DNA of 64,000 nt from a virus. Its lineage: Duplodnaviria; Heunggongvirae; Uroviricota; Caudoviricetes. Of this stretch, positions 2,936-63,629 are shown in pieces. The stretch spans positions 41,120-105,119 of the IMG/VR virus record IMGVR_UViG_3300043410_001642; one strand, 5' to 3'. The stretch's first letter is position 1; each line of letters starts with the position of its first letter. A program made the translations under genes and the position numbers. The notes under the pieces are model-generated. The model ran no database searches, was not told the DNA's origin, and saw only the letters and a list, made by a program, of their open reading frames with translations.

Positions 2936-3377
2936 GATATTAGTTATATGTAGTGGATATTTCAATCCTGTTCATAAAGGGCATATTGAATATCTGAAGA
3001 AAAGTAAAGAAGCGGGAACATACCTCTATGTAATTGTTAATAACGATTTACAAAGAGAAATGAAAGGTTCTGCACCATTTATGGAAGCTGAAGAAAGAAA
3101 GTTAATCATTGAATCACTTAAATTTGTAGATGAAGCAATGGTTGCGATTGATGATGATAGAATGGTTAATAGAAGTATTAAATGGATAATGGCCAAAATG
3201 GGTCATCAATTTGATTTAGTATATTTTGCAAATGGTGGAGACCAAAATAAAGATACAATTGGAGAAACTGAAATGTGTAACCAATTGGGTATTCAGTTAT
3301 TAGATAATTTAGGAGATAAAATTCAATCTTCATCATGGTTAATAAAAGATTCAAATGAGTTTCATAATAGGAAATAA
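2922..3377 (+). CDS. cytidylyltransferase-fold nucleotidyltransferase (HxGH family; RfaE domain II / TagD / NMNAT-like)
   Basis: N-terminal motif ICSGYFNPVHKGHIEYL...YVIVNNDL matches (T/H)xGH nucleotidyltransferase signature. Confidence 0.6.
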   Translation: MEKTKILVICSGYFNPVHKGHIEYLKKSKEAGTYLYVIVNNDLQREMKGSAPFMEAEERKLIIESLKFVDEAMVAIDDDRMVNRSIKWIMAKMGHQFDLVYFANGGDQNKDTIGETEMCNQLGIQLLDNLGDKIQSSSWLIKDSNEFHNRK

Positions 3378-7674: not shown

Positions 7675-7699
7675 TTTAAGAAATAAAAATAATAAAAAA

Positions 7700-7726
7700 C
7701 CCTCACTTATTGTGGGGGTTTTTATT
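7700..7726 (+). terminator. rho-independent terminator after TonB-dependent receptor gene
   Basis: CCCTCAC-TTATT-GTGGGGG hairpin + TTTTTATTTT. Confidence 0.6.
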
Positions 7727-7833
7727 TTAATGGTAATAGTCAAAGTTACAACTTCTATATTTATAGATGGTTATTTAAATTTTGTTTTGTAAATTGTTAT
7801 ATATTTGAGTTTTAAAAAAAAATATTTCGTTTT

Positions 7834-32544: not shown

Positions 32545-32600
32545 TTTGGAAAAATCAACAATTTTTAGTATATTTGAAACATAAACAATAAAGCAATAAT

Positions 32601-40566: not shown

Positions 40567-41777
40567 AAAATTTAGTTTTTTATAGATACTTTTCTAATCA
40601 TAAAAGAGAAGTTGAGTTTGAAGATTTTAATATAGATTCGGAATACTTTGCTGAAAGGGAATTATTCTCATTAAGAAAGAATTATTTTTTCACAACACTA
40701 AGTGATTACAATATTGTTACAAACGAATCTGATGTAAATGGATTAAATGATTTCACTCTATTGATTGGGTTTGACCCTTCATTCAAAGAAATGTTTGAAT
40801 TGATTGAGAGAGAAGATTTTAATAACATAATAGACCAGAATATATCAAAGATAAAAAAGATTATATTTTGGGAAATGGATACAGGATGGACAAACTATTC
40901 TTACAATGAATATCAATCTTTATCAGTTCCATTTAAACAATGGTTCAGTGATAAGAACATAGAGATTGAAATATTCACAAATGCTATGTCATTTAAGTAT
41001 GATGAAGAAGTTAAGTATTGGCCTTCACATAACTCAATGGTAATAGAAAGATTAGTTAGAGAATTGGAAAAGGCTAACTATTATGATATGGAGTTTGATA
41101 GAACTAAATACTTCTATGCAACTTCCAATTCATTGAATGTAGATAGATTACACTTCTACAAATATATGCATGATAATAAGATTTGGGAAAAGAATAACAT
41201 TGCTTTATTCTCTACATTTAGAAATAGTGAGCATGATGGAGGATTCCCTTACTCATATGTTAGAGAGATAAGAGGTAATTGTGGATTGGATGATATTGGA
41301 GATGATTACATATTCTATCCAAAACCATTCAAAGATGAAAACTTTCAAACTATGAATTATTCGGTATTATCAAATATTCAGAAGTTAAGAGAATGTTATT
41401 TTGAAATGGTGTTTGAAACGATATACGAAGCAAATGAAAATATGATAATCCAAACATCGGAAAAGACATGGAAACCTTTGGCTCAAAAGATACCATTTAT
41501 TACATTCTCATATGGTGATGTATTGAAAGAGTTTAAGAAATTAGGATTTAAAACATTTGATTTCATATTTGATGAGAGTTATGACAATGAAAGAAATACT
41601 CATAAAAGATTGTATAAAGTATTAGAGCAAATCGGAAAGGTTTGTAATATGAGTTTAGATGAGTTAAAGGAATATGAAAGTGAAATAAAAGCGGTAACGG
41701 ATTACAATTTTAATAACTTAAAAGAGGTCTTTTCTCTATGGAGAAATAGACTAAGAGATGCAGTTTATTATGAGTAA
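40563..41777 (+). CDS. glycosyltransferase, GT10 (alpha-1,3-fucosyltransferase)-like
   Basis: FETIYEANENMIIQTSEKTWKPLAQKIPFITFSYG resembles FucT FENS...ITEKLWK...VPVV motif; paralog of 36021-37166. Confidence 0.5.
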   Translation: MKNLVFYRYFSNHKREVEFEDFNIDSEYFAERELFSLRKNYFFTTLSDYNIVTNESDVNGLNDFTLLIGFDPSFKEMFELIEREDFNNIIDQNISKIKKIIFWEMDTGWTNYSYNEYQSLSVPFKQWFSDKNIEIEIFTNAMSFKYDEEVKYWPSHNSMVIERLVRELEKANYYDMEFDRTKYFYATSNSLNVDRLHFYKYMHDNKIWEKNNIALFSTFRNSEHDGGFPYSYVREIRGNCGLDDIGDDYIFYPKPFKDENFQTMNYSVLSNIQKLRECYFEMVFETIYEANENMIIQTSEKTWKPLAQKIPFITFSYGDVLKEFKKLGFKTFDFIFDESYDNERNTHKRLYKVLEQIGKVCNMSLDELKEYESEIKAVTDYNFNNLKEVFSLWRNRLRDAVYYE

Positions 41778-53961: not shown

Positions 53962-55059
53962 ATGAAACGAATAATAACATCATTCTGCATCCTGACAATG
54001 TTGGGATGTAGTAAAGATGATATCATAACTCCAAACCCAATTGAGACAATTGTAGGATATAAAAATCAAACTACAAATTCAATCAGATTACAATCTAAAG
54101 TTTGGCAATGGTATAATGAGAATACATCTTTTTATGCTGATATAAATTTGGATGGTAAGGAAGAAGTTTTTATTGCAAATGAAAATTCAAAACCAATAGT
54201 AATGTGGAATGATAATACATCTACAACTATTTCAGATGGTCTTAATATCTTTCCTCGTTCAATTATAGGAAATGATTTTAATGGAGATGGTTATATTGAT
54301 TTCGTAGTAATGGTTCATAACAATGAGCAACTACAACCAAACCCAGGAGAAATACCAAACTTATATTTGAATGATAAGAAAGGTGGATTCATAGTAAGCA
54401 AGTTAAATCTAAAATCAGCATTTTGGCATTTAGGATCATCTGCGGATATTGATAAGGATGGTGATATAGATTTAGTAGTATGCACTGCCGGTTCAGTTAA
54501 TATAATGATTAACGACGGCAAAGGTGGATTTACATTAGATAATAGTAGAATACCTTCAACATATACAAACTCACATTATATAGGAGGAATGTTGGAGGAT
54601 ATCAACGGAGATGGTTATATAGATTTATTGGTATATGGAGCAGAGTTTAATTCATTACCTAATAACACCGGTTTCGGCAAAGATAATCCATCTAAAACAA
54701 GAATACTATGGGGTAATAGTTCATTCAGCTACACCGAAGCAAATTCTATGATATTGCCAAATGATTCAGATGGATTTGGATTGATAATAGATGCCGTTTG
54801 TGTTGATTTAAATGATGATGGGAAGAAAGAAATTATATTGGATAGAACCGGTGACCCATTAAACTTTACATTCTATAAAGGATATAAGATTCAAATATTA
54901 ACGGAAGGCAATGATGTAACTAATAACTTTATTTCAAATGCTAGTTCAAAGACTGATGATTGGATTGTTTGGTTGAAAGTTATGGATGTTAATGGTGATT
55001 ACAAAAAAGATGTATTGGAAGGTAATAAAAGAAGAGTAAAATATTTTTTACAAAAATAG
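53962..55059 (+). CDS. FG-GAP/VCBS-repeat lipoprotein (beta-propeller-like)
   Basis: Lipobox LTMLGCSKDD; six DxNxDGxxD-type repeats (DINLDGKEEVF, DFNGDGYIDFVV, DIDKDGDIDLVV, DINGDGYIDLLV, DLNDDGKKEIIL, DVNGDYKKDVL). Confidence 0.55.
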   Translation: MKRIITSFCILTMLGCSKDDIITPNPIETIVGYKNQTTNSIRLQSKVWQWYNENTSFYADINLDGKEEVFIANENSKPIVMWNDNTSTTISDGLNIFPRSIIGNDFNGDGYIDFVVMVHNNEQLQPNPGEIPNLYLNDKKGGFIVSKLNLKSAFWHLGSSADIDKDGDIDLVVCTAGSVNIMINDGKGGFTLDNSRIPSTYTNSHYIGGMLEDINGDGYIDLLVYGAEFNSLPNNTGFGKDNPSKTRILWGNSSFSYTEANSMILPNDSDGFGLIIDAVCVDLNDDGKKEIILDRTGDPLNFTFYKGYKIQILTEGNDVTNNFISNASSKTDDWIVWLKVMDVNGDYKKDVLEGNKRRVKYFLQK

Positions 55060-55133
55060 TTAATTTTTTATCGTTTTGTAAAATTACTTTATATATATCT
55101 ATATACAAATATATAATAGAAAAAAATAATTGA

Positions 55134-55180
55134 AAAATTATTAGGAAATGTGAAAATCATTTCGTATATTTGTAAAACAA
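55134..55180 (+). promoter_or_regulatory. promoter-like direct repeat copy 1 (TATATTTG -7 box) upstream of initiator tRNA
   Basis: ATTAGGAAATGTGAAAATCATTTCGTATATTTGTAAAACAA; matches Bacteroidetes TAnnTTTG -7 consensus. Confidence 0.5.
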
Positions 55181-55207
55181 TAAGGAAATAAGTTCTTTAA
55201 CATATAT

Positions 55208-55279
55208 CGCGGGGTAGAGCAGTGGTAGCTTGGTGGGCTCATAACCCATAGGTCGGTGGTTCGAATCCATCCTCCGCAA
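55208..55279 (+). tRNA. tRNA-fMet (CAT), initiator-like
   Basis: C1xA72 unpaired acceptor end, three consecutive G-C pairs in anticodon stem, loop CTCATAA, T-arm GGTGGTTCGAATCCATC. Confidence 0.8.
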
Positions 55280-55284
55280 CTAAA

Positions 55285-55340
55285 AAAATATTACAAATAA
55301 TTAGGAAATGTGAAAATCATTTCGTATATTTGTAAAACAA
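55285..55340 (+). promoter_or_regulatory. promoter-like direct repeat copy 2
   Basis: AAATATTACAAATAATTAGGAAATGTGAAAATCATTTCGTATATTTGTAAAACAA. Confidence 0.5.
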
Positions 55341-55445
55341 AATGAGATAGTGGTTGAAGCCAACATCTAATAAAACCGAATGTGTGACTACTTCCTCCAT
55401 ATGCAGGGGGTTAAATAAAGCCGGATATCACTAAAACATTTTGTA

Positions 55446-55498
55446 AAAAATATTACAAATAATTAGGAAATGTGAAAATGTTTTCGTATATTTGTAAA
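55446..55498 (+). promoter_or_regulatory. promoter-like direct repeat copy 3
   Basis: Same repeat with 3 substitutions (…AAAATGTTTTCGTATATTTGTAAAG). Confidence 0.5.
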
Positions 55499-55608
55499 GT
55501 TGACCAGAAGTAGGAAGGCAATATAGTCTAAACAATGCTACTCTCCCACTATTGGAGAGATGAGTATAAAAAGGATATCCGAAAATGTTCAACAAAAAAA
55601 AGATAAAA

Positions 55609-55662
55609 AATATTTAAAGAAATATTTGGAAATGTGAAAATCATTTCGTATCTTTACGAAGT
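55609..55662 (+). promoter_or_regulatory. promoter-like direct repeat copy 4 (diverged -7 region)
   Basis: AAATATTTGGAAATGTGAAAATCATTTCGTATCTTTACGAAG directly upstream of ORF-free 1.5 kb segment. Confidence 0.4.
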
Positions 55663-55664
55663 AA

Positions 55665-57184
55665 TTATGAAACTCATAGGTGATGAAAGATACTCGGTAT
55701 TCATAATAACAAAAAAGTTCTTTAAAAGATTGAAATTATATTCTATATAGTAACCTTGTGTTACATAATAGAGTGGCCGCATATGGTCGTTAAATAAACT
55801 ACGAAAGTAGGATAAAGTGGAATGGTTTGGTTTAATCATTCTGCGGCTTTTCACCCGTAAGGGAGTTGAGCTCAAGTATGCAAGTGAGATATCGCTTTGG
55901 CTTTGTAGGTGGGGGTAACACTATCATCGAAGAGTTGGAGTGACTGGGCAAATGTAGATTGTTCAGTTGAGTTGGGAACAACAATAAGAATAACTCATAG
56001 AATTTATGCAAGAAGTTGAAACTTAATCCCTTTCAATCATTGCGTGATTCAATACAAAAGTGGTCTTAACATCAAATTGGGGAAACCCTTTAAGATAAGA
56101 CTGTGTACAGGTGGTGCTGTTACTATCCTTTTATAGAGTTTACCAAAACCTATAAATGAAGATGACTTGAAGTATGATGATAGGGATATCATATCGGGTA
56201 GTAAAGTATTCCGTTGTTCAAAAGATAGCGGAGCTTATGGCAAACCACTACCTGAAACCATCTACAAAACCAAACTCATTTGCATTTGGATTGCAAAATC
56301 ATAAAATCAAGTAAGAAAAAGAGTTTGCCAGTTGTATCCGAAAGGTGTCTACATAGTAATGAGATGTTCATTGCCACAAACCTCCTCAAGGGGAATGTGA
56401 TTCATCTGAAAGGTTTCTAACACCGCAAGTGTGAATTAGCTCGGCAGAGTTGAAGAAAATAAGTATGGTGAGAGTAGGATATAACTCTAAGATTGGTTGG
56501 CTATACCGACCGACATTGAATTGGTACTTCTCAAAAGGAAGTGGAAACGAAAGGAACTAATAATCTTTCTAAAGCTGGTTCACAATATGGAGTATTCTCA
56601 TCCTTATTTTATTATCTAAATGGTTAAAGTTGGTTCGATTCCAATATAGATAACTTCGTAGTGGTTTAACGGCAGAAAAATAGATGTACCTTCTAGAGAC
56701 TGAAAGTTCCACTTAAATAAAATCGACAAATATATGATGGTATGGTTTTCCGTAGGGGATTTTTACCTTAAACAATCTCAACCAATGCGAATTAGTGTTG
56801 ATGGTAACAACGGCTGTAGCTAGGCCATTTGAAAGAACCACCCTACAAAATCTTTCTTTTTAGCTAAAGTGAAAGTAGTTTAATGAGGCTTATATTAACC
56901 GGTGCATGACACGACGTGGCGTATTTTGAAATTAAATTACTTTTTTTATTATTAAAAAAAATATTGTTATACTTATTATAGAAAACTAAAGATGAAAACT
57001 TTAACATTACATACAATCAATCAACTGCCAACACAAAGATGTGAATGGACGGGGATTCGTATGTTTAGTGTGATAGCGAATCCGGCAACCTTGAATTTTG
57101 GCAAGGTGGATTATATTAGCACGAAGATGTTAGAGGATACTGATGTAGGATAAAATGTAACAATTTTAGAACAATATTGAAAAA
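55665..57184 (+). ncRNA. candidate large non-coding RNA (ORF-free, promoter-to-terminator segment)
   Basis: No + strand ORF of 60 aa or more over about 1.5 kb in an otherwise coding-dense region; promoter repeat at 5' end, terminator at 57185-57215; internal hairpins and a tRNA T-arm-like GGTTCGATTCC at 56632. Confidence 0.4.
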
Positions 57185-57215
57185 CCTCTAACTCACAAAG
57201 TTAGGGGTTTTTTAG
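57185..57215 (+). terminator. rho-independent terminator
   Basis: CCTCTAACT-CACAA-AGTTAGGGG hairpin followed by TTTTTT. Confidence 0.6.
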
Positions 57216-57224
57216 TTTTTATAT

Positions 57225-57296
57225 GTTGGTGTAGCTCAATGGTAGAGCAACGGACTGTTAATCCGTAGGTTGTAGGTTCGAATCCTTCCACCAACG
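57225..57296 (+). tRNA. tRNA-Asn (GTT)
   Basis: Perfect 7-bp acceptor GTTGGTG/CACCAAC, anticodon loop CTGTTAA, T-loop TTCGAAT (one T-stem mismatch). Confidence 0.8.
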
Positions 57297-57328
57297 CAAG
57301 AAAGGTTCTTTGACATTATGGGAAAAGC

Positions 57329-57402
57329 AGGAGATTAGCTCAGTCGGTTAGAGCATCGCCCTTACATGGCGAGGGTCATAGGTTCGAATCCTATATCTCC
57401 TA
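57329..57402 (+). tRNA. tRNA-Val (TAC)
   Basis: Acceptor AGGAGAT/ATCTCCT, D-arm TAGCTCAGTCGGTTAGAGC, anticodon loop CTTACAT, T-arm ATAGGTTCGAATCCTAT. Confidence 0.85.
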
Positions 57403-57498
57403 CTAATGTGGTAATCACTCCATAGAAATATGGTAAGCATCCGATAGTAACATCGGACTGGCAATGTGGTTATTAAGAGGTAAGGAAAAGACTAAATT

Positions 57499-57578
57499 GG
57501 GAGTATCGCATAGCGGCAATTGCGGCTGACTGTAAATCAGCTCCTTCGGGTTCAGTGGTTCGAGTCCACTTACTCCCA
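57499..57578 (+). tRNA. tRNA-Tyr (GTA), class II with long variable arm
   Basis: Acceptor GGGAGTA/TACTCCC, anticodon loop CTGTAAA, variable arm CTCCTTCGGGTTC, T-arm GTGGTTCGAGTCCAC. Confidence 0.85.
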
Positions 57579-57583
57579 CAATT

Positions 57584-57656
57584 GGAGGTGAAGCTAACTT
57601 GGTAGAAGCGCTGGACTGAAAATCCAGAGGAAGTGGTTCGATTCCACTCACCTCCA
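57584..57656 (+). tRNA. tRNA-Phe (GAA)
   Basis: Acceptor GGAGGTG/CACCTCC, anticodon loop CTGAAAA, T-arm AGTGGTTCGATTCCACT. Confidence 0.85.
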
Positions 57657-57662
57657 CACAAT

Positions 57663-57737
57663 GAATCCGTAGCTCAGTTGGTTTAGAGCACCTCACTTTT
57701 AATGAGGGAGTCAATGGTTCGAGTCCATTCGGGTTCA
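57663..57737 (+). tRNA. tRNA-Lys (TTT)
   Basis: Acceptor GAATCCG/CGGGTTC, anticodon stem-loop CCTCA-CTTTTAA-TGAGG, T-arm AATGGTTCGAGTCCATT. Confidence 0.85.
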
Positions 57738-57792
57738 CATAGTAGTTTTGAGGTTGGCGAATTCTACTTTAAAAAAATAATCCATCCACCAA

Positions 57793-57868
57793 CGGAATGT
57801 AGAGGAGTCCGGTCTATCTCGCCACATTTGGGATGTGGAGCACGCAGGTTCGAATCCTGCTATTCCGA
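57793..57868 (+). tRNA. tRNA-Pro (TGG)
   Basis: Acceptor CGGAATG/TATTCCG, anticodon stem-loop CCACA-TTTGGGA-TGTGG, T-arm GCAGGTTCGAATCCTGC. Confidence 0.8.
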
Positions 57869-57915
57869 CAGATATGGTTCGCACTAGACAATGCGTGAAA
57901 ATAGGAAGTGCAAAT

Positions 57916-57989
57916 TGGTAGTTAGCTCATTTGGTTAGAGCATCTCGCTGATACCGAGAAGGTGGCAGGTTCGAATCCCGCACTACCAA
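57916..57989 (+). tRNA. tRNA-Ile (GAT)
   Basis: Acceptor TGGTAGT/ACTACCA, anticodon stem-loop TCTCG-CTGATAC-CGAGA, T-loop TTCGAAT (one A-C mismatch in T-stem). Confidence 0.8.
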
Positions 57990-58067
57990 CAATACGAATC
58001 AACCGGGTGGCTGAAACCTGACTAGTAGTGGAGAATACCCACAACCCGGTCAATGTTCGTATTAATT

Positions 58068-58138
58068 ATCTCTTTGGTGCAATGGTAGCATATCGGTCTC
58101 CAAAACCGCAGATGAAAGTTCGAATCTTTCAGGGGGTG
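58068..58138 (+). tRNA. tRNA-Trp (CCA), acceptor stem with three G-U pairs
   Basis: Body aligns to bacterial tRNA-Trp (GGTCTCCAAAACCG anticodon arm, T-arm GAAAGTTCGAATCTTTC); 5' strand ATCTCTT pairs with AGGGGGT only via wobbles. Confidence 0.55.
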
Positions 58139-58152
58139 CAAAATGTAAAACT

Positions 58153-58443
58153 ATGAAAAAAGTATTATTAGGATTAATGATGGTAGTTAGTTTGAATGGT
58201 TATTCACAAATTCAATCAGATTCGGTTAGAATAAATCAAATCGATAGTACATTGAGAGAATATGGTAAACAACAAACGATAGCTAATAAGATTACATTGG
58301 TAAGTATTGGAACAATTGTAATCGGTACTGCAATAGGAATACCAGCAGCACCTTTGTTGATTGTAAATACGATAGCTGATTTAACCACTATAATCATAAG
58401 TGGAAAATCTAATAGAAGATTAGCAAAACATAAAAGTAAGTAA
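58153..58443 (+). CDS. hypothetical membrane protein
   Basis: 96 aa with two TM segments, inside tRNA island. Confidence 0.35.
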   Translation: MKKVLLGLMMVVSLNGYSQIQSDSVRINQIDSTLREYGKQQTIANKITLVSIGTIVIGTAIGIPAAPLLIVNTIADLTTIIISGKSNRRLAKHKSK

Positions 58444-58493
58444 ACTATGAAACAATTATTTGACAAACATTAGGTAAACAAACCTAATGTAAA

Positions 58494-58691
58494 ATGACAA
58501 ACAAAGAAAGAAAAGTAAAAGAAATGAATGAAACATATTGTTATTGTTTCATTTGTAACAAAAGAAATGGAAGTTGGTATTACGATTGTCATCCATCATC
58601 ATTCAGTGCAAAAAGACATGGTAATGGTAAAATCGTAAATCAAAGAGAGTGTAGAAGTTGGAAACACAACCGAAAGACTCAATGGAAATAA
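58494..58691 (+). CDS. hypothetical Cys-rich small protein
   Basis: 65 aa, CYCFICNKRNGSWYYDCH zinc-ribbon-like. Confidence 0.3.
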   Translation: MTNKERKVKEMNETYCYCFICNKRNGSWYYDCHPSSFSAKRHGNGKIVNQRECRSWKHNRKTQWK

Positions 58692-58697
58692 AAGGAT

Positions 58698-58769
58698 GGC
58701 TCTATGGTGTAATGGATAGCACCTTTGACTACGGATCAAAAAGTAAGGGTTCGAATCCTTTTGGAGCTA
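58698..58769 (+). tRNA. tRNA-Arg (ACG)
   Basis: Acceptor GGCTCTA/TGGAGCT (2 G-U), anticodon stem-loop TTTGA-CTACGGA-TCAAA, T-arm AAGGGTTCGAATCCTTT. Confidence 0.8.
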
Positions 58770-58776
58770 CAAATAA

Positions 58777-58847
58777 GGTCGGTTGTCCGAGCGGCTAGGT
58801 GGAGCACTGCAAACGCTTTTAGATAGGTTCAACTCCTATACTGACCT
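58777..58847 (+). ncRNA. degenerate tRNA-like element (no canonical anticodon arm)
   Basis: 7-bp acceptor GGTCGGT/ACTGACC, D-arm TCCGAGCGGCTAGGTGGA, T-arm ATAGGTTCAACTCCTAT, but the 19-nt middle segment cannot form a 5-bp/7-nt anticodon stem-loop. Confidence 0.3.
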
Positions 58848-58918
58848 CAACCGGTGAAGGATACTGGATGTATCGCCTGGCATTAGAGCTGGGAAAGTGG
58901 TTCGATTCCACATTTTAT

Positions 58919-58986
58919 TGCGGGGAGAGAGGTTTCCCACCGGTCTCATAAGCCGAGTGTTCTAGGTTCGATTCCTAGCCCCGCAA
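58919..58986 (+). tRNA. tRNA (CAT), short D-arm; Met or Ile2(lysidine)
   Basis: Perfect acceptor TGCGGGG/CCCCGCA, loop CTCATAA, T-arm CTAGGTTCGATTCCTAG; only 68 nt. Confidence 0.55.
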
Positions 58987-58991
58987 CATAT

Positions 58992-59063
58992 GGTGTTTAT
59001 TGTGTAAGGGTAGCACGACAGATTGTGGTTCTGTTAGTATGGGTTCGAATCCCATTATTCACC
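58992..59063 (+). tRNA. tRNA-His (GTG) with G-1
   Basis: Anticodon stem-loop ACAGA-TTGTGGT-TCTGT, T-arm ATGGGTTCGAATCCCAT, discriminator C; acceptor GTGTTTA/TATTCAC has two T-T mismatches. Confidence 0.6.
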
Positions 59064-59069
59064 CCAAAT

Positions 59070-59159
59070 AGAGAGTTACCCAAGTTGGTGAAGGGGCCTC
59101 ATTGCTAACGAGGTAGGTCGGATAAAACCGGCGCAAGAGTTCGAACCTCTTACTCTCTA
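59070..59159 (+). tRNA. tRNA-Ser (GCT), class II
   Basis: Acceptor AGAGAGT/ACTCTCT, anticodon stem-loop CCTCA-TTGCTAA-CGAGG, long variable arm, T-arm AAGAGTTCGAACCTCTT. Confidence 0.85.
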
Positions 59160-59167
59160 CTGAAAAT

Positions 59168-59241
59168 GTCCGTATGGCGTAATTGGCAACCGCACTGGTC
59201 TTAGAAACCAGTTTGTGTAGGTTCGAATCCTACTATGGACA
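59168..59241 (+). tRNA. tRNA with Leu anticodon TAG but class-I (short variable arm) architecture
   Basis: Acceptor GTCCGTA/TATGGAC, anticodon stem-loop CTGGT-CTTAGAA-ACCAG, 5-nt variable region TTTGT, T-arm GTAGGTTCGAATCCTAC, discriminator A. Confidence 0.6.
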
Positions 59242-59279
59242 CTTAAAAACGAAATTGTTAATATGTAAAAATAAAGTAT

Positions 59280-59735
59280 ATGGAATACAAAAGGCTATAC
59301 GATGGAGAAAAAGTAAATCTAATACAATATGTAGGGGATTACTTAACAACAAAAGAAAATGTAGAAATACTGATTGGTTGTGATTCACAAAACTTTTCCG
59401 ATAAAACTATCTATGCCATTGTTGTAGCCCTATACGATAAAGGTAAAGGAGCACATGTTTTATATAAGAAATGGAAAACTGATAGAGAATGGACAAGAAA
59501 TATCAGATTACTAAACGAAGTGTGGTATGCAGTAGAAGTTGCAGAGGCAATGAAAGCAGCAGGATTACCAAAAGTTAAATGGATTGATATTGATATTAAC
59601 CCAGACCCAAGATACAAATCAAATGAAGTGTTAAGACAAGCAGTTGGTATGGTAGAAGGAATGGGATATAAAGTGAGATACAAAACATTAGGCCCAATTG
59701 CAACATATTGTGCTGACCATTTGGTAAAATTATAG
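59280..59735 (+). CDS. hypothetical protein
   Basis: 151-aa ORF between tRNA groups. Confidence 0.4.
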   Translation: MEYKRLYDGEKVNLIQYVGDYLTTKENVEILIGCDSQNFSDKTIYAIVVALYDKGKGAHVLYKKWKTDREWTRNIRLLNEVWYAVEVAEAMKAAGLPKVKWIDIDINPDPRYKSNEVLRQAVGMVEGMGYKVRYKTLGPIATYCADHLVKL

Positions 59736-59756
59736 AGAAAAGTTTTGGATATATCA

Positions 59757-59782
59757 GATAATTTTCGTATATTTGTAATGTT
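59757..59782 (+). promoter_or_regulatory. partial copy of promoter repeat (TTTTCGTATATTTGTAATG) immediately upstream of ATG 59783
   Basis: Shares TCGTATATTTGTAA core with 55.1-55.7 kb repeats. Confidence 0.4.
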
Positions 59783-60208
59783 ATGAGAATAAAAGGTTGG
59801 GATAAATTAAGATATCAATTTGTAGCAGTTGCTGGTGCTAAATTAGTTATTGATTCAACCTGGTCGGTAGATAATAGTGAAGACAAAAAGGTTACTTATG
59901 TTTTAACTCTATGTGATTCTGATAATGTTGGAGAAGATTTAATAAAGGTAATGTTGGCAGAAGGGATTGGGGATGAATTTCATATGACAGTGGAATTGCT
60001 TCCTCAACAAATAACACCAAACATTAAAAGGGTCTTTAGAAGAAAAGACCTGATAGATATGAGAGGATTTTTGAATGATATGTTAGTGGAATTGAGTAAA
60101 AATGGTATGATATATAGTTATCTATCATTGGTTGGGGATATTCAGACACAAAGGGTGATGAATGCTCCTTCTATGAATACATTTTCATCTCATTCATTTA
60201 ATCCATAA
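59783..60208 (+). CDS. hypothetical protein
   Basis: 141-aa ORF. Confidence 0.4.
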   Translation: MRIKGWDKLRYQFVAVAGAKLVIDSTWSVDNSEDKKVTYVLTLCDSDNVGEDLIKVMLAEGIGDEFHMTVELLPQQITPNIKRVFRRKDLIDMRGFLNDMLVELSKNGMIYSYLSLVGDIQTQRVMNAPSMNTFSSHSFNP

Positions 60209-60210
60209 TT

Positions 60211-60282
60211 GCAGCTATGGACTAGGGGTTAGGTCACATCCCTTTCACGGATGTAGCACGGGTTCGAATCCCGTTAGCTGTA
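60211..60282 (+). tRNA. tRNA-Glu (TTC)
   Basis: Acceptor GCAGCTA/TAGCTGT, anticodon stem-loop CATCC-CTTTCAC-GGATG, T-arm ACGGGTTCGAATCCCGT. Confidence 0.85.
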
Positions 60283-60380
60283 CAAGACATACATCACATT
60301 CGGTCAAGCCACATTGAGCCGTTAGTGTATGGAATAGGTAAGAGAGAGGTGGTGGCTGGAACATCTCTCTTACTACAACT

Positions 60381-60453
60381 GCCGGAGTAGCTCAATTGGT
60401 AGAGCAACTGATTTGTAATCAGTAGGTTGCGGGTTCGAGTCCCATCTCTGGCT
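60381..60453 (+). tRNA. tRNA-Thr (TGT)
   Basis: Acceptor GCCGGAG/CTCTGGC, anticodon stem-loop ACTGA-TTTGTAA-TCAGT, T-loop TTCGAGT. Confidence 0.8.
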
Positions 60454-60524
60454 CAAGTGGATTCATCAGTTGATGAAAACCAATCGGGGGTTGTCCCACT
60501 AGAATGGAAACATCCCCTGCAACC

Positions 60525-60598
60525 GGTGCTTTGGTGTAGAGGCCTAACATGCTTCCCTGTCACGGAAGAGACCACGAGTTCGAATCTCGTAAGCACCG
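60525..60598 (+). tRNA. tRNA-Asp (GTC)
   Basis: Acceptor GGTGCTT/AAGCACC, anticodon stem-loop CTTCC-CTGTCAC-GGAAG, T-arm ACGAGTTCGAATCTCGT. Confidence 0.85.
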
Positions 60599-60611
60599 CA
60601 GTATTTTTTTT

Positions 60612-60685
<74 letters not shown>

Positions 60686-60704
60686 CTAACCAAATGTTAT
60701 ATTT

Positions 60705-61106
60705 ATGAGTTTTATTAACTTTCTATTTGTAATTAATTTGTTTATTCCGAATGAAACTGGCGAAGGAGCAGATTTCACTGATTCGTATGAAGTAATGGAA
60801 GTAACCGCTACAACATACACTCCTTCAGTAAGAGAAACGGATTCAACACCATTAGTTACTGCAAGTGGATTTAAGATTAACCCAAAGAGAGCAAAGCAAC
60901 ATCGTATTATTGCGGTGAGCAGAGATTTGAAACGAAAGTATAAGTTCGGAACAAGGGTTAAAATCAGTGGTGCAGGAAAGTACAGTGGGGAGTATGTAGT
61001 GAGAGATGTAATGAATAAAAGATACAAAAAAAGAATTGATATCTTAATTGGTAGAAAAGATAAACAAACTAAATTTAAGAATGTAAAAATTCGTAAGGTT
61101 AGTTAA
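60705..61106 (+). CDS. 3D-domain (MltA/YuiC-like) protein
   Basis: N-terminal hydrophobic segment; TATTYTPSVRETDSTPLVTASG...IAVS...GTRV...GEYVVRDV resembles 3D-domain double-psi barrel proteins. Confidence 0.45.
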   Translation: MSFINFLFVINLFIPNETGEGADFTDSYEVMEVTATTYTPSVRETDSTPLVTASGFKINPKRAKQHRIIAVSRDLKRKYKFGTRVKISGAGKYSGEYVVRDVMNKRYKKRIDILIGRKDKQTKFKNVKIRKVS

Positions 61107-61112
61107 TCTAAT

Positions 61113-61197
61113 AGGCGTGTGGCGTAATGGTAGCCGCGAGAGACTTAAAATCTCTTGTTCAGTAATGAGCGTGCCGGTTCGAATCCGGCCATGCCTA
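61113..61197 (+). tRNA. tRNA-Leu (TAA), class II
   Basis: Acceptor AGGCGTG/CATGCCT, anticodon stem-loop AGAGA-CTTAAAA-TCTCT, long variable arm, T-arm GCCGGTTCGAATCCGGC. Confidence 0.85.
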
Positions 61198-61305
61198 CTA
61201 AAAAACATGGAAGGTGTAATGAAGTGCATTGCCTAACATCGTTAGGAGGAGTAGGTTTGATTCCTACAAAATGTTTTTTTATTTTCAACTCATTAATAAA
61301 TTAGT

Positions 61306-61875
61306 ATGTTAAGAGAATTTAAATTAAATTGGACATTAGATTCTAACTTAAATGATGTAGATGAAAAGGATAAAATCATATATCAGTTGATTGAAGAAAC
61401 TGCTAACGATTCAAATTCATCTAAATTTAGAGAAGATGTTACTAAATGGATTGTTGGATTGGAAGCATCTGAAGGTAAACATGGATATGATGATGATTTT
61501 GAAGCAATTGAAGTAAAGCCGAAAAACTTTACTGGAAAAACAAAATTAAATGGAGGTGGTCAATTTACTGATTTTACTTGGAAAAGAGATGAAAAATATT
61601 CTAATGATAAAGTTGTAATGATGGTTAGTGGATTTTGTTATGGTAAATTAGTGTTCGTAGTTGAATTTAAATATGAAGATATTAAAAGTAAAATACAATC
61701 TAAATTAAGCAGAATTCTTCCAGATGGAGATTTGCCAAATAGATATGTTCGTTCTGCTAGTTTTTCATATTTAGATTGGAAGAATTCATTTGAATTGAAA
61801 TATATTTCACCAAATTTTGAATCATTCAAACATAGTATGGTAGTTGGATTATATAATTTATTAAGTAACAAATGA
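61306..61875 (+). CDS. hypothetical protein (possible partner of downstream methyltransferase)
   Basis: 189-aa ORF overlapping MTase start by 4 nt. Confidence 0.4.
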   Translation: MLREFKLNWTLDSNLNDVDEKDKIIYQLIEETANDSNSSKFREDVTKWIVGLEASEGKHGYDDDFEAIEVKPKNFTGKTKLNGGGQFTDFTWKRDEKYSNDKVVMMVSGFCYGKLVFVVEFKYEDIKSKIQSKLSRILPDGDLPNRYVRSASFSYLDWKNSFELKYISPNFESFKHSMVVGLYNLLSNK

Positions 61876-62882
61876 TAGAGAAATTTTTAAATATAAAAAA
61901 TAGTTTAAGAAATTTATCGGAAGAAGAATTTGAATCATTGTTGCCGATATTAGCAAATGAATTAGAATCCGTAAATTATATACCAATATTTTCTGACAAA
62001 GATTTATATGATGATTGGATGAAATTAGTTGGGTGGAATTCAAATGTGAACTCAATTGCATCTGCTCAAAGAATTGGTATGAAATTATGTGAACATTTTT
62101 TTCCTAATTTCTATGATATAGAGAATAAAAAAGGAGATTCTTTTAAAACACTATGGAAATCTGATAAATTAGGTAAAATATTAAAATGGAATCGTAGCTC
62201 ACATACAACTCCATATCTTTCAGAGTTAAAGCGTGGTATATATTTTAATTATGGGTTAGCAAAATCAACTATGTATAGACCACAAATGGCTAAAATGGTT
62301 GTTAGTAATTTGGGAGCAAAGAGAGTATTAGACCCTTGTGCTGGTTGGGGTGGTAGAATGTTAGGAACAATTTCAGCTGGGGCTGAATATGTAGCATTTG
62401 AACCAAATACCGAAACATATAAAGGTTTATTGAGATTGGTAAAGTTTTTGAATATAGAAGATAAAGTAAGAATTGTAAATGATTCTGCTTTGGAAATGAA
62501 TAAATATGATATTGGTGAATTTGATTTGGTATTAACATCACCACCATATTTTGATTTAGAAGTTTATTCTCATGAAGATACTCAATCGGTAAAAGGATGT
62601 GATACTTATTCAATGTGGGTTAATAATTTTCTAAAACCATTGATTGAATTGGCAATATCACATATGAAAGAAGATGGTTGGAGTTGCTGGAATGTTCATA
62701 ATGTTGGTAAAATGAAAATGATTGATGATATAAAAGAAATACACGATGAATACAAAACTCAAAGAGTATTTTCAATAACATCATCAAAAAGACAGACAAA
62801 CCAAACTGATTCCGAAAAAAAGAATAAAGATGTAACAATATGTTATTCTAAATCGGAGAAAAGAGAAAATATATTTTTTTAA
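61872..62882 (+). CDS. DNA amino-methyltransferase (N6-adenine or N4-cytosine)
   Basis: AdoMet motif I VLDPCAGWGGRMLG and catalytic motif IV LTSPPYFD. Confidence 0.7.
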   Translation: MIEKFLNIKNSLRNLSEEEFESLLPILANELESVNYIPIFSDKDLYDDWMKLVGWNSNVNSIASAQRIGMKLCEHFFPNFYDIENKKGDSFKTLWKSDKLGKILKWNRSSHTTPYLSELKRGIYFNYGLAKSTMYRPQMAKMVVSNLGAKRVLDPCAGWGGRMLGTISAGAEYVAFEPNTETYKGLLRLVKFLNIEDKVRIVNDSALEMNKYDIGEFDLVLTSPPYFDLEVYSHEDTQSVKGCDTYSMWVNNFLKPLIELAISHMKEDGWSCWNVHNVGKMKMIDDIKEIHDEYKTQRVFSITSSKRQTNQTDSEKKNKDVTICYSKSEKRENIFF

Positions 62883-62884
62883 AT

Positions 62885-62958
62885 GGGGATGTAGTTCAGT
62901 TGGCTAGAACGCTTGATTTGCATTCAAGAGGTCGTGGGTTCGACTCCCTCCATCTCCA
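62885..62958 (+). tRNA. tRNA-Ala (TGC)
   Basis: Acceptor GGGGATG/CATCTCC with G3-U70, anticodon stem-loop CTTGA-TTTGCAT-TCAAG, T-loop TTCGACT. Confidence 0.8.
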
Positions 62959-63139
62959 CATATGCCAGAGTGGCGGAAAGAATAGTTTGAATTCGAATAA
63001 AAACTATTAGACGTCCCGTAATTCTAGAAAGGTGGTGTATCCGAAATGGACATCGTGTGAGTAACCAATCTCTCCTCTGGCACCTTATTTATCGTTGAAA
63101 GAAACGATAAAGTTAATTATCGTTAATATTAACGATTAA

Positions 63140-63213
63140 GGGCTTGTAGCTCATTCGGTTAGAGCAACGCACTCATAATGCGGAGGTAATAGGTTCGATT
63201 CCTATCTGGCCCA
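63140..63213 (+). tRNA. tRNA (CAT), elongator Met or Ile2
   Basis: D-arm TAGCTCATTCGGTTAGAGC, loop CTCATAA, T-arm ATAGGTTCGATTCCTAT; acceptor GGGCTTG/CTGGCCC with one mismatch. Confidence 0.7.
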
Positions 63214-63291
63214 CAAACTAAGTGGTTAAAATAGTGGGCATCCGATGGAGTGCCGAAAAGAGAATAGGTGTTTTCTATCCATCATTTTTAA

Positions 63292-63363
63292 GCAGATGTC
63301 GTATAATGGTCATTACTCCTTCCTTCCAAGTAGGAGACGTAGGTTCGATTCCTATCATCTGCT
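63292..63363 (+). tRNA. tRNA-Gly (TCC)
   Basis: Acceptor GCAGATG/CATCTGC, anticodon loop CTTCCAA (stem CCTTC/GTAGG with one T-T), T-arm GTAGGTTCGATTCCTAT. Confidence 0.6.
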
Positions 63364-63444
63364 CAACTCAAGTACCCATACCGCTAACGATGGGCTAAGT
63401 AAGATACAATTCCGTACTGCGGGGAGTAGAATGCTTGAGATTAT

Positions 63445-63515
63445 TGCCCGATGGTGTAGCGGTAGCACAAATGTTTTTGGTGCATTTAGGGTTGGTTCGA
63501 ATCCAGCTCGGGTAA
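63445..63515 (+). tRNA. tRNA-Gln (TTG)
   Basis: Acceptor TGCCCGA/TCGGGTA, anticodon stem-loop AATGT-TTTTGGT-GCATT, T-arm GTTGGTTCGAATCCAGC. Confidence 0.7.
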
Positions 63516-63629
63516 CATTTCCCATAAGTCATTGATTCTTAATGACATATTTCATTAAAATAACTTCATTTTTATTTGGAAAATTCAAATGTTTTTCCTA
63601 TCTTTACTATGTAATAAAAGATAAGAAAT

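Follow-up and report, generated by a model that had tools for sequence, protein, structure and literature searches.

The IMG/VR virus record IMGVR_UViG_3300043410_001642 contains an untranslated RNA island, in which an initiator tRNA gene (tRNA-fMet) is followed by small conserved units (Units A, B and C), the large RNA GOLLD and an array of tRNA genes. We analyzed a window of 64,000 nucleotides (nt) of this record (positions 41,120–105,119; all coordinates are given relative to the window). Four direct repeats at the head of the island are, in our reading, host-type promoters. They would head a boxA-protected operon of nested non-coding transcripts, which includes tRNA-fMet, Units A and B, and Unit C with GOLLD, and feeds the tRNA array. 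Judged from comparative sequence analysis, we put the probability of this reading at about 75%. The RNA island is part of an uncultured jumbo phage. When 50,697 phage records were searched by blastn and tblastn, the nearest relatives proved to be assemblies of uncultured huge or jumbo phages. The recognizable proteins of the window were few and phage-like; PHROG annotation of ten large open reading frames (ORFs) pointed to no particular phage lineage. For comparison, we collected more than 250 loci from IMG/VR, scanned by the promoter core and later by the unit cores.

A repeat search returned one family of four 68-nt direct copies, starting at 55121, 55281, 55443 and 55605, with 72–82% identity to copy 1 and start-to-start distances of 160, 162 and 162 nt. 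The 29-nt core of the repeat, GGAAATGTGAAAATCATTTCGTATATTTG, matched at these four sites with two or fewer mismatches and nowhere else in the 64 kb (0.00 matches expected from 100 shuffles). An earlier sequence-only reading of this DNA had described four direct repeats, each with a Bacteroidetes −7 box and spaced at 150–165 bp, as a cassette array of individually promoted small RNAs. The repeats and their boxes were confirmed. The periodicity holds in the window but is not kept in relatives, where successive promoter copies are ~103–380 nt apart. Thus, the ~160-nt period is not a design feature and reflects three ~100-nt units.

The −33 consensus of the Bacteroidota sigma-A promoter is TTTG, located 19–21 nt upstream of the −7 box. 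The −7 box is TAnnTTTG, at −12 to −5 in Flavobacterium psychrophilum, and we placed each predicted transcriptional start site (+1) 5 nt past the −7 box after the geometry of this species (PMC9723704). Every repeat in the window reads TT(A/T)G, 20 nt, TA(T/C)(A/T)TTT(G/A). The −7 box is TATATTTG in copies 1–3 and TATCTTTA in copy 4, the latter agreeing with TAnnTTTG at 7/8 positions. The −33 element stands 20 nt from the −7 box in 4/4 copies, as TTTG in copy 4 and as TTAG in the other copies.

The pattern TT[TA]G-N19-21-TAnnTTT[GA] had 21 matches in the window, compared to 9.1 ± 3.3 expected from first-order Markov simulations. Matches on the + strand fall into one class, ATTTGG...TTTnnGTATATTTG (extended form ATTTGG..N..TCGTATMTTTG). 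Sites of this class at 2409, 43243, 47473 and 48282 are located ~15–25 nt 5′ of the ATG of a protein gene, and those at 32545 and 47473 lie directly 3′ of terminator-like hairpins. Because the same motif class precedes protein genes, the four repeats can be regarded as members of a phage-wide promoter class. The consensus −33 element over 325 sites in related loci was ATTTGG; as these sites were picked by a pattern that fixes both boxes, only their flank and spacer positions are informative. Intergenic members before protein genes (2409, 32545, 43243, 47473, 48282, 59744 and 63575) are also useful for annotating transcription units.

The four repeats are much more alike than other members of the class. 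A 24-mer, GGAAATGTGAAAATCATTTCGTAT, is identical in copies 1, 2 and 4, and carries CA where copy 3 and most exact-pattern matches in relatives have GT. In relatives, tRNA-fMet, Unit A and Unit C/GOLLD each have a promoter of different sequence. Because the 24-mer is shared here while relatives keep three distinct promoter sequences, the near-identity of the copies looks like recent intragenomic copying or gene conversion. The repeat array itself is an ordinary stack of near-identical promoters.

What follows each promoter is conserved at a fixed position. The closing helix of Unit A begins 1 nt past the predicted +1 of copy 2 (55337), that of Unit B directly at the +1 of copy 3 (55499), and that of Unit C 3 nt past the +1 of copy 4 (55661). 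Between the predicted +1 of copy 1 and tRNA-fMet is a boxA-bearing leader of 31 nt. The sequence-only reading had placed an initiator tRNA-fMet after the first repeat, and its initiator marks can be read from the gene: the C1×A72 mismatch, A11:U24, three G-C pairs at the end of the anticodon stem (G29–31:C39–41) and the CAU anticodon.

Unit A provides the strongest comparative signal. In all, we detected copies at no fewer than 165 viral loci in IMG/VR, among them loci from a pattern in which the 5′ junction was left free. A covariance model built from 15 Unit A sequences matched 41/99 loci at E < 1e-11. For the covariation test, the alignment was anchored without the variable hairpin P4 and contained 77 distinct sequences. 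Compensatory changes were found at 16/16 tested pairs (12 in P1 and 4 in P3), P3 was paired in 100% of the sequences and varied between two and four types of pair at each position, and 88.6% of all cells were paired compared to 30–48% when the partners were slid by 1–3 columns. P4 varies in length and sequence, and folds better than shuffled sequences (mean z = −2.3 over 88 unique regions). The strands between the helices, UGAAGCCA (U(G/A)AAGCCA), (C)UAAUAAAACCGA, GUG(A) and AAAGCCGGA(Y) (AAAGCCGGAY), are near-invariant, and several of these positions had been left free by the search patterns. On this comparative evidence, Unit A is a bona fide widespread structured phage RNA. Near-invariant junctions combined with freely covarying stems are the signature of a ribozyme, an aptamer or a specific protein-binding RNA.

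The surroundings of Unit A differ widely. Among the matches listed, GOLLD lies within 3 kb downstream at 49 of the at least 165 loci, tRNA-fMet ends within 70 nt upstream at 34, and 81 have neither GOLLD nor a tRNA nearby. The Unit A core follows tRNA-fMet by 12–16 nt with no intervening promoter in 23 of the 80 first instances examined. At ~46–49 IMG/VR loci (L119, L123, L126, L202 and others), Unit A is flanked by a gene for a gp32-like SSB (PF08804) and one for RecA/UvsX (PF00154); there it begins within a few nt of the stop codon and ends ~20–30 nt before the Shine-Dalgarno sequence and ATG. As the neighbors differ, Unit A is better described as an autonomous module than as a regulator of a single gene class. 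A riboswitch for one gene class was rejected, with RecA/UvsX, radical-SAM-like proteins, unknown small proteins or no gene at all found downstream.

Known RNA families did not account for the units. Permissive scans with Rfam 15 (E up to 10) over 54900–57300, 55281–55775 and a Unit A copy of another phage assigned Units A, B and C to no family, with chance-level matches of 17 bits or less. An informal comparison of Unit A with the consensus of hammerhead, twister, pistol and c-di-GMP-I RNAs gave no convincing match, and the corresponding Rfam models gave no match either. The Unit A core was absent from the 50,697 phage records searched by blastn and tblastn, and no cultured phage with the core was found there. 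A literature string search for the conserved cores returned unrelated papers only, presumably through chance matches. The conserved single strands of Units A, B and C showed complementarity to 55101–57300, including GOLLD, through 7–8-mers only, which is the chance level.

Unit B is less widely distributed. Homologues were found in 8 IMG/VR contigs besides the window copy, and the 5′ and 3′ blocks are kept in them. The terminal GUUGA...UCAAC pairing starts at the predicted +1, and the minimum free energy of the unit has a z-score of −2.96. The sequence-only reading had described the second and third units as ORF-free segments of about 100 nt with hairpins. They indeed contain no + strand ORF of 30 or more amino acids, but the CTCTCC/GGAGAG hairpin singled out there is part of a window-specific extra segment of Unit B that is absent from the seven homologues aligned. 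Unit B reaches its size of ~95 nt only through this segment. Of these two units, the first showed covariation, and the second has no covariation support.

Unit C is a hairpin with a variable stem, in which AACUCAUAGGUGAUGAAAGAUACUCGGUAU adds three or four pairs and leaves a near-invariant loop of ~21 nt, (Y)NANAGGYRAUGAAAGAUACUC. Its 18-nt core, ATGAAAGATACTCGGTAT, is present in 85 viral contigs. Compensatory changes were found at 10/13 stem pairs, and 90.9% of the cells were paired compared to 16–46% with slid partners (45 distinct sequences). An exact-core scan of one genome each for 185,579 species gave 5 matches, all by chance and without the stem and loop context. An origin of Unit C as a host rRNA-leader element was rejected, since no true copy was found in these genomes. 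A role of the loop as a Shine-Dalgarno mimic, with AGGUGAU complementary to the 3′ end of 16S rRNA, is a weak candidate, as the two positions after AGG vary freely (UG, CG, CA, UA, AG and AA). Unit C appears to be a phage-specific leader hairpin. Read on the opposite strand, the loop sequence AAAGATAC (55686–55693) gives GTATCTTT, which stands in the −7 box of copy 4 (55648–55655) and is a frequent form of the −7 region in related phages too. This complementarity of 8 nt may be due to chance or may hint at promoter mimicry.

The promoter motif ends 10–14 nt before the Unit C loop in 32/37 distinct contexts, indicating that the hairpin starts at about +1. A boxA (GTTCTTTRA-like) follows Unit C within 60 nt in 24/37 contexts. 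Further downstream is GOLLD, at a near-constant ~520–550 nt to its 3′ domain, or tRNAs. Three of the five GTTCTTTRA sites in the window are within the RNA island. boxA is known to protect long non-coding transcripts from Rho, and the boxA motifs recorded ahead of CRISPR arrays, those of Bacteroidetes among them, include AGTTCTTTGACATG and similar sequences (PMC7665894 and its supplement). The CRISPR boxA of Legionella pneumophila str. Lens raised pre-crRNA ~10-fold when inserted in a leader (PMC7862264). In rrn leaders, too, a strong promoter is closely followed by a hairpin and then boxA. By this analogy, we infer that Unit C and boxA form an antitermination or processivity leader.

GOLLD is among the largest bacterial and phage RNAs, and its solved structure is a 14-mer nanocage. 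We know of no function established for it. The fourth repeat had been described as heading a 1.5-kb ORF-free segment. It does head this segment, but the segment is not anonymous, as it holds GOLLD (RF02032), which the sequence-only reading had not recognized. The 3′ domain at 56194–56604 matched the full-length Rfam model with 307.5 bits (gathering score of 150; E = 4e-87). The 5′ end (~55772) aligns by eye with the start of the env-38 cryo-EM construct (PMC12286853 supplement). A further hairpin is located between boxA (55717–55727) and GOLLD.

The same module of tRNA-fMet, promoter-headed small units, GOLLD and a tRNA array is shared by relatives, namely IMG/VR contigs of 65–290 kb and the 635-kb LR745206. 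The units are reordered among them: Unit C comes after Unit A in some and after Unit B in others, and still others have an extra unit (Unit D) or a second promoter after Unit C and ahead of GOLLD. Unit D, found in L006 (~3072–3170) and L007 (~7689–7780), is a promoter-headed conserved unit of ~95 nt that is absent from the window; its sequence runs caaagtaatcagaa...ggttgaaatctgattac with complementary ends. A transfer-messenger RNA (tmRNA) gene lies upstream of tRNA-fMet in seven related loci (L003–L009), and ARAGORN and Rfam detected none in the window.

We propose the following scheme for the island. Four paralogous copies of one strong Bacteroidota sigma-A promoter, all directed rightward, would stand at its head. 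Copy 1 would transcribe the boxA leader and tRNA-fMet, copy 2 Unit A, copy 3 Unit B, and copy 4 the leader of Unit C and the second boxA followed by GOLLD of ~830 nt. No intrinsic terminator lies between the units, so that nested transcripts are likely, which would continue past GOLLD into the tRNA array. The idea of individually promoted small RNAs is largely supported and withstood all computational tests made. It is favored by the promoter match, the recurrence of the same promoter and units in relatives, the covariation of Units A and C, and the predicted +1 near the helices; the units are, however, probably not insulated genes but belong to a single operon with nested, co-directional transcripts. 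In a scan of 54900–57400, one strong terminator-like hairpin was found, together with a weak site at 57088–57107. The strong hairpin with its T-run reaches to within 8 nt of tRNA-Asn, which leaves the start of the tRNA array without its own promoter. The next promoter-class motif is at 59744, and read-through would reach at least the first 14 tRNAs of the array. As in rRNA operons and CRISPR arrays, boxA would bring in host NusB/NusE and make RNA polymerase resistant to Rho along this long stretch of untranslated RNA, and Unit C beside it would serve as the hairpin does in nut or rrn leaders. The tRNAs and small RNAs would finally be cut out by host nucleases, among them RNase P and RNase Z. 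Nus-dependent antitermination, as well as functions of Units A, B and C in trans, are presumed here.

Several points weigh against this scheme. The −33 element is TTAG and not TTTG in copies 1–3, and the −7 box of copy 4 ends in A instead of G. The assignment to a Bacteroidota host rests on the promoter type and absent Shine-Dalgarno sequences; the leaders displayed for promoter-class genes had no Shine-Dalgarno sequences, in line with what is expected of this phylum (PMC6847099). boxA is only 9–11 nt long, and GTTCTTTRA is not significantly enriched in the window (5 compared to 2.4 expected), so the weight of boxA comes from its conserved position. Even this position is not universal, as the element next after Unit C is another promoter and not boxA in 11/37 contexts (11 of the 13 without boxA). 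Unit C could equally be a 5′ stabilizer or a stand-alone small RNA, and Unit B, with its 8 homologues, has no covariation support. Every transcriptional start site, read-through and processing step is a prediction from the sequence. Finally, jumbo phages often encode their own RNA polymerases, which might use such sites.

This last point leads to an alternative in which the repeats are promoters for a phage RNA polymerase or sigma factor, and the spacer (GGAAATGTGAAAAT.ATTTCG) is a phage recognition element or the operator of a regulator that times the RNA island. Conservation does spill past the host boxes into ATTTGG, TCGTAT and the spacer, and the phage is large, with many of its proteins lacking annotation. 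Nevertheless, the host −33 and −7 elements, at host spacing, make up the two most informative blocks, and no phage RNA polymerase or sigma factor was recognized among the ten large ORFs tested. Copies 1, 2 and 4 contain an imperfect dyad, GAAATG-N7-CATTTC, which could suit such a regulator; the dyad showed no compensating changes in relatives by inspection, and we rejected it as an operator. We consider this alternative unlikely. The repeats might instead bind proteins, as iterons or operators at a replication origin or a partition site, and have an incidental −7-like box, as four direct repeats in an A/T-rich ORF-free stretch superficially resemble an origin. This is hardly credible given that the cumulative GC skew rises monotonically across the region with no turn, that ~160 nt is far above typical iteron spacing and varies in relatives, that the motif class occurs singly before protein genes, and that each copy keeps a fixed distance from the 5′ end of a conserved RNA.

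Another view takes the second and third units as junk, namely decayed tRNAs or spacers left by tandem duplication of a promoter and tRNA, with only tRNA-fMet and GOLLD being functional. Both units are about as long as a tRNA and are located in a tRNA region, which also contains a tRNA remnant (56605–56655). However, neither Unit A nor Unit B scores as a tRNA. For Unit A the view is refuted by its occurrence in at least 165 viral contigs, many without a nearby tRNA or GOLLD, and by the compensatory changes at all tested pairs. For Unit B, with few homologues and no covariation, it may still hold, although the blocks of this unit are kept in 8 other contigs; as a whole, it is very improbable. 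There is scarcely any likelihood that the repeats are the ends or target sites of a mobile cassette, similar to a miniature inverted-repeat transposable element (MITE) or an integron, with each promoter and RNA unit moving together. The order and content of the units vary among related phages and Unit A occurs in unrelated contexts, as such mobility would produce, but no inverted terminal repeats flank the units, and no target-site duplications or adjacent transposase or integrase gene were seen. Terminal repeats of a mobile element had been named as one finding that would overturn the sequence-only reading. Moreover, the copies are all direct and co-oriented with the RNAs, and recombination between promoter copies explains the reshuffling more simply. 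A CRISPR array was excluded, because the repeats are 68 nt long, the ~95-nt "spacers" are conserved structured RNAs shared by phages, and the Rfam scans of the window contained no CRISPR family.

The proposed operon of host-type promoters has partial precedents. Tandem P1 and P2 promoters with UP elements drive rrn operons, and the island likewise has strong co-directional promoters with A/T-rich upstream tracts before one stable-RNA operon. It differs in having four copies instead of two, which are near-identical and each predicted to set the 5′ end of a separate small RNA. The tRNA cluster of phage T4 embeds the stable RNAs species 1 and 2 (rnaC and rnaD) of unknown function, which are co-transcribed and processed with the tRNAs. 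The arrangement of small non-coding RNAs amid phage tRNAs is alike, whereas here each small RNA has its own promoter copy, and GOLLD and boxA leaders are added. The leader, with a promoter followed within ~60 nt by a hairpin and boxA GTTCTTTAAAA and heading a long processed untranslated RNA, resembles those of rrn operons, lambda nut sites and CRISPR arrays. Unlike these, it is phage-borne and heads tRNA and GOLLD genes, with Nus binding being predicted. In lambda nut, boxA and the boxB hairpin are in the reverse order to Unit C and boxA here; the near-invariant ~21-nt loop of Unit C is also unlike boxB, and no N-like protein was identified. boxA before non-coding arrays has been documented, including in Bacteroidetes (PMC7665894, PMC7862264).

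With respect to GOLLD, PMC12286853 places env-38 GOLLD downstream of tRNA-Met and GOLLD in general in phages near tRNA islands, and co-transcription of GOLLD with tRNAs was suggested earlier (PMC5737381). The GOLLD of the window likewise lies downstream of tRNA-Met and beside a tRNA island in a phage, and its 5′ end can be aligned with the env-38 construct. The GOLLD passages of PMC12286853 and PMC5737381 do not mention the promoter array, the leader of Unit C and boxA, or Units A and B. GOLLD beside tRNA-Met is already known, and the four tandem host-type promoters, the hairpin and boxA leader, and the companion RNAs (above all Units A and C) are new.

The locus and its relatives suggest a mode of GOLLD expression in aquatic Bacteroidetes-type phages, in which a host-type promoter and a hairpin and boxA leader drive one untranslated operon with an initiator tRNA and a tRNA array. 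If boxA antitermination is true, this would be a case of a phage drawing on the rRNA-type Nus system of its host to express a non-coding RNA island, in a phylum whose phage transcription control is little explored. Because of its near-invariant junctions, covarying stems and occurrence in at least 165 viral contigs, Unit A, whose conservation pattern is ribozyme- or aptamer-like, is a concrete and cheap target for in vitro work. A bolder proposal, which we offer tentatively and regard as rather doubtful, is that Unit A founds an undescribed widespread class of phage RNA with a specific job (self-cleavage or processing, ligand binding or protein binding) and that Unit A, together with Unit C and boxA, is a functional partner of GOLLD. 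If so, the island would consist of functional partners of GOLLD and give a first handle on the role of the nanocage.

Table 1 Features of the RNA island, with positions in the window; start sites and promoter elements are predicted.
Feature	Position	Strand	Description
Promoter copy 1	55121–55188	+	A/T-rich upstream tract; −33 TTAG 55141–55144; 20-nt spacer; −7 TATATTTG 55165–55172; predicted +1 ~55177
boxA-like element	55192–55202	+	GTTCTTTAACA; leader of tRNA-fMet; matches boxA motifs in PMC7665894 supplement; kept before tRNA-fMet in relatives
Initiator tRNA-fMet	55208–55280	+	Anticodon CAT; ARAGORN; Rfam tRNA 60.8 bits
Promoter copy 2	55281–55348	+	−33 55301–55304; −7 55325–55332; predicted +1 ~55337
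Unit A, three-way-junction RNA	55338–55443	+	106 nt; P1 55338–55359/55422–55443; P3 ACAT/ATGT; P4 variable hairpin
Promoter copy 3	55443–55510	+	−33 55463–55466; −7 55487–55494; predicted +1 ~55499
Unit B, conserved non-coding unit	55499–55593	+	~95 nt; GUUGA...CAGAAGUAGGAAG...GAAAAUGUUCAAC; complementary ends
Promoter copy 4	55605–55672	+	−33 TTTG 55625–55628; −7 TATCTTTA 55649–55656; predicted +1 ~55661
Unit C, leader hairpin	55664–55707	+	Stem ATTATGA/TCATAAT, variable; encloses 30 nt, AACUCAUAGGUGAUGAAAGAUACUCGGUAU
boxA	55717–55727	+	GTTCTTTAAAA; GOLLD leader; identical to L. pneumophila str. Lens CRISPR boxA (PMC7862264)
GOLLD RNA	55772–56604	+	~830 nt; conserved 3′ domain 56194–56604; Rfam RF02032
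Terminator-like hairpin and T-run	57176–57216	+	Only strong one in 54900–57400; ends 8 nt before tRNA-Asn
tRNA array, 22 further genes	57225–63516	+	ARAGORN; tRNA-Asn first
Third boxA-like element	57305–57313	+	GGTTCTTTGACAT; between tRNA-Asn and tRNA-Val; near-identical to Bacteroidia CRISPR-leader boxA AGTTCTTTGACATG

The G+C content of the window is ~31%, and 36/36 ORFs of 200 or more amino acids are on the + strand. ARAGORN identified 23 tRNA genes, and the Rfam scan added a 24th match. With the Rfam tRNA model, a weak extra tRNA-like gene (34.2 bits) was found at 58919–58986 that ARAGORN did not report. Upstream of the island, 53962–55120 holds an ORF of 365 amino acids with three internal repeats of ~36 nt encoding DxDxDG-like motifs, which we take to be possibly FG-GAP or calcium-binding.

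Other conserved elements lie between GOLLD and the tRNA array. The tRNA 3′ remnant, with the T-arm GTTGGTTCGATTCCAAT, directly follows GOLLD at 56605–56655, and L003, L004, L006, L007 and L009 have a full-length tRNA-like sequence at this place. Block E (56660–56865) is a conserved ORF-free element common to L006, L007, L014, L053, L075, L118 and L130, with no match in Rfam. The pairing GTAGGGG/CCCTAC closes the ~100 nt at its 3′ end, within which there is a covarying hairpin (GGC/GCC, GGA/TCC, GAA/TTC and AAA/TTT). Block F (56866–56940, ~70 nt) is conserved in 24 other loci, where it occurs ~50–500 nt downstream of the GOLLD 3′ domain, in most of them at ~55 nt. It may extend GOLLD at the 3′ end or be an element of its own. 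A 53-codon ORF at 56992–57153 precedes the strong hairpin and T-run, and its DNA sequence is conserved in 10 related loci.

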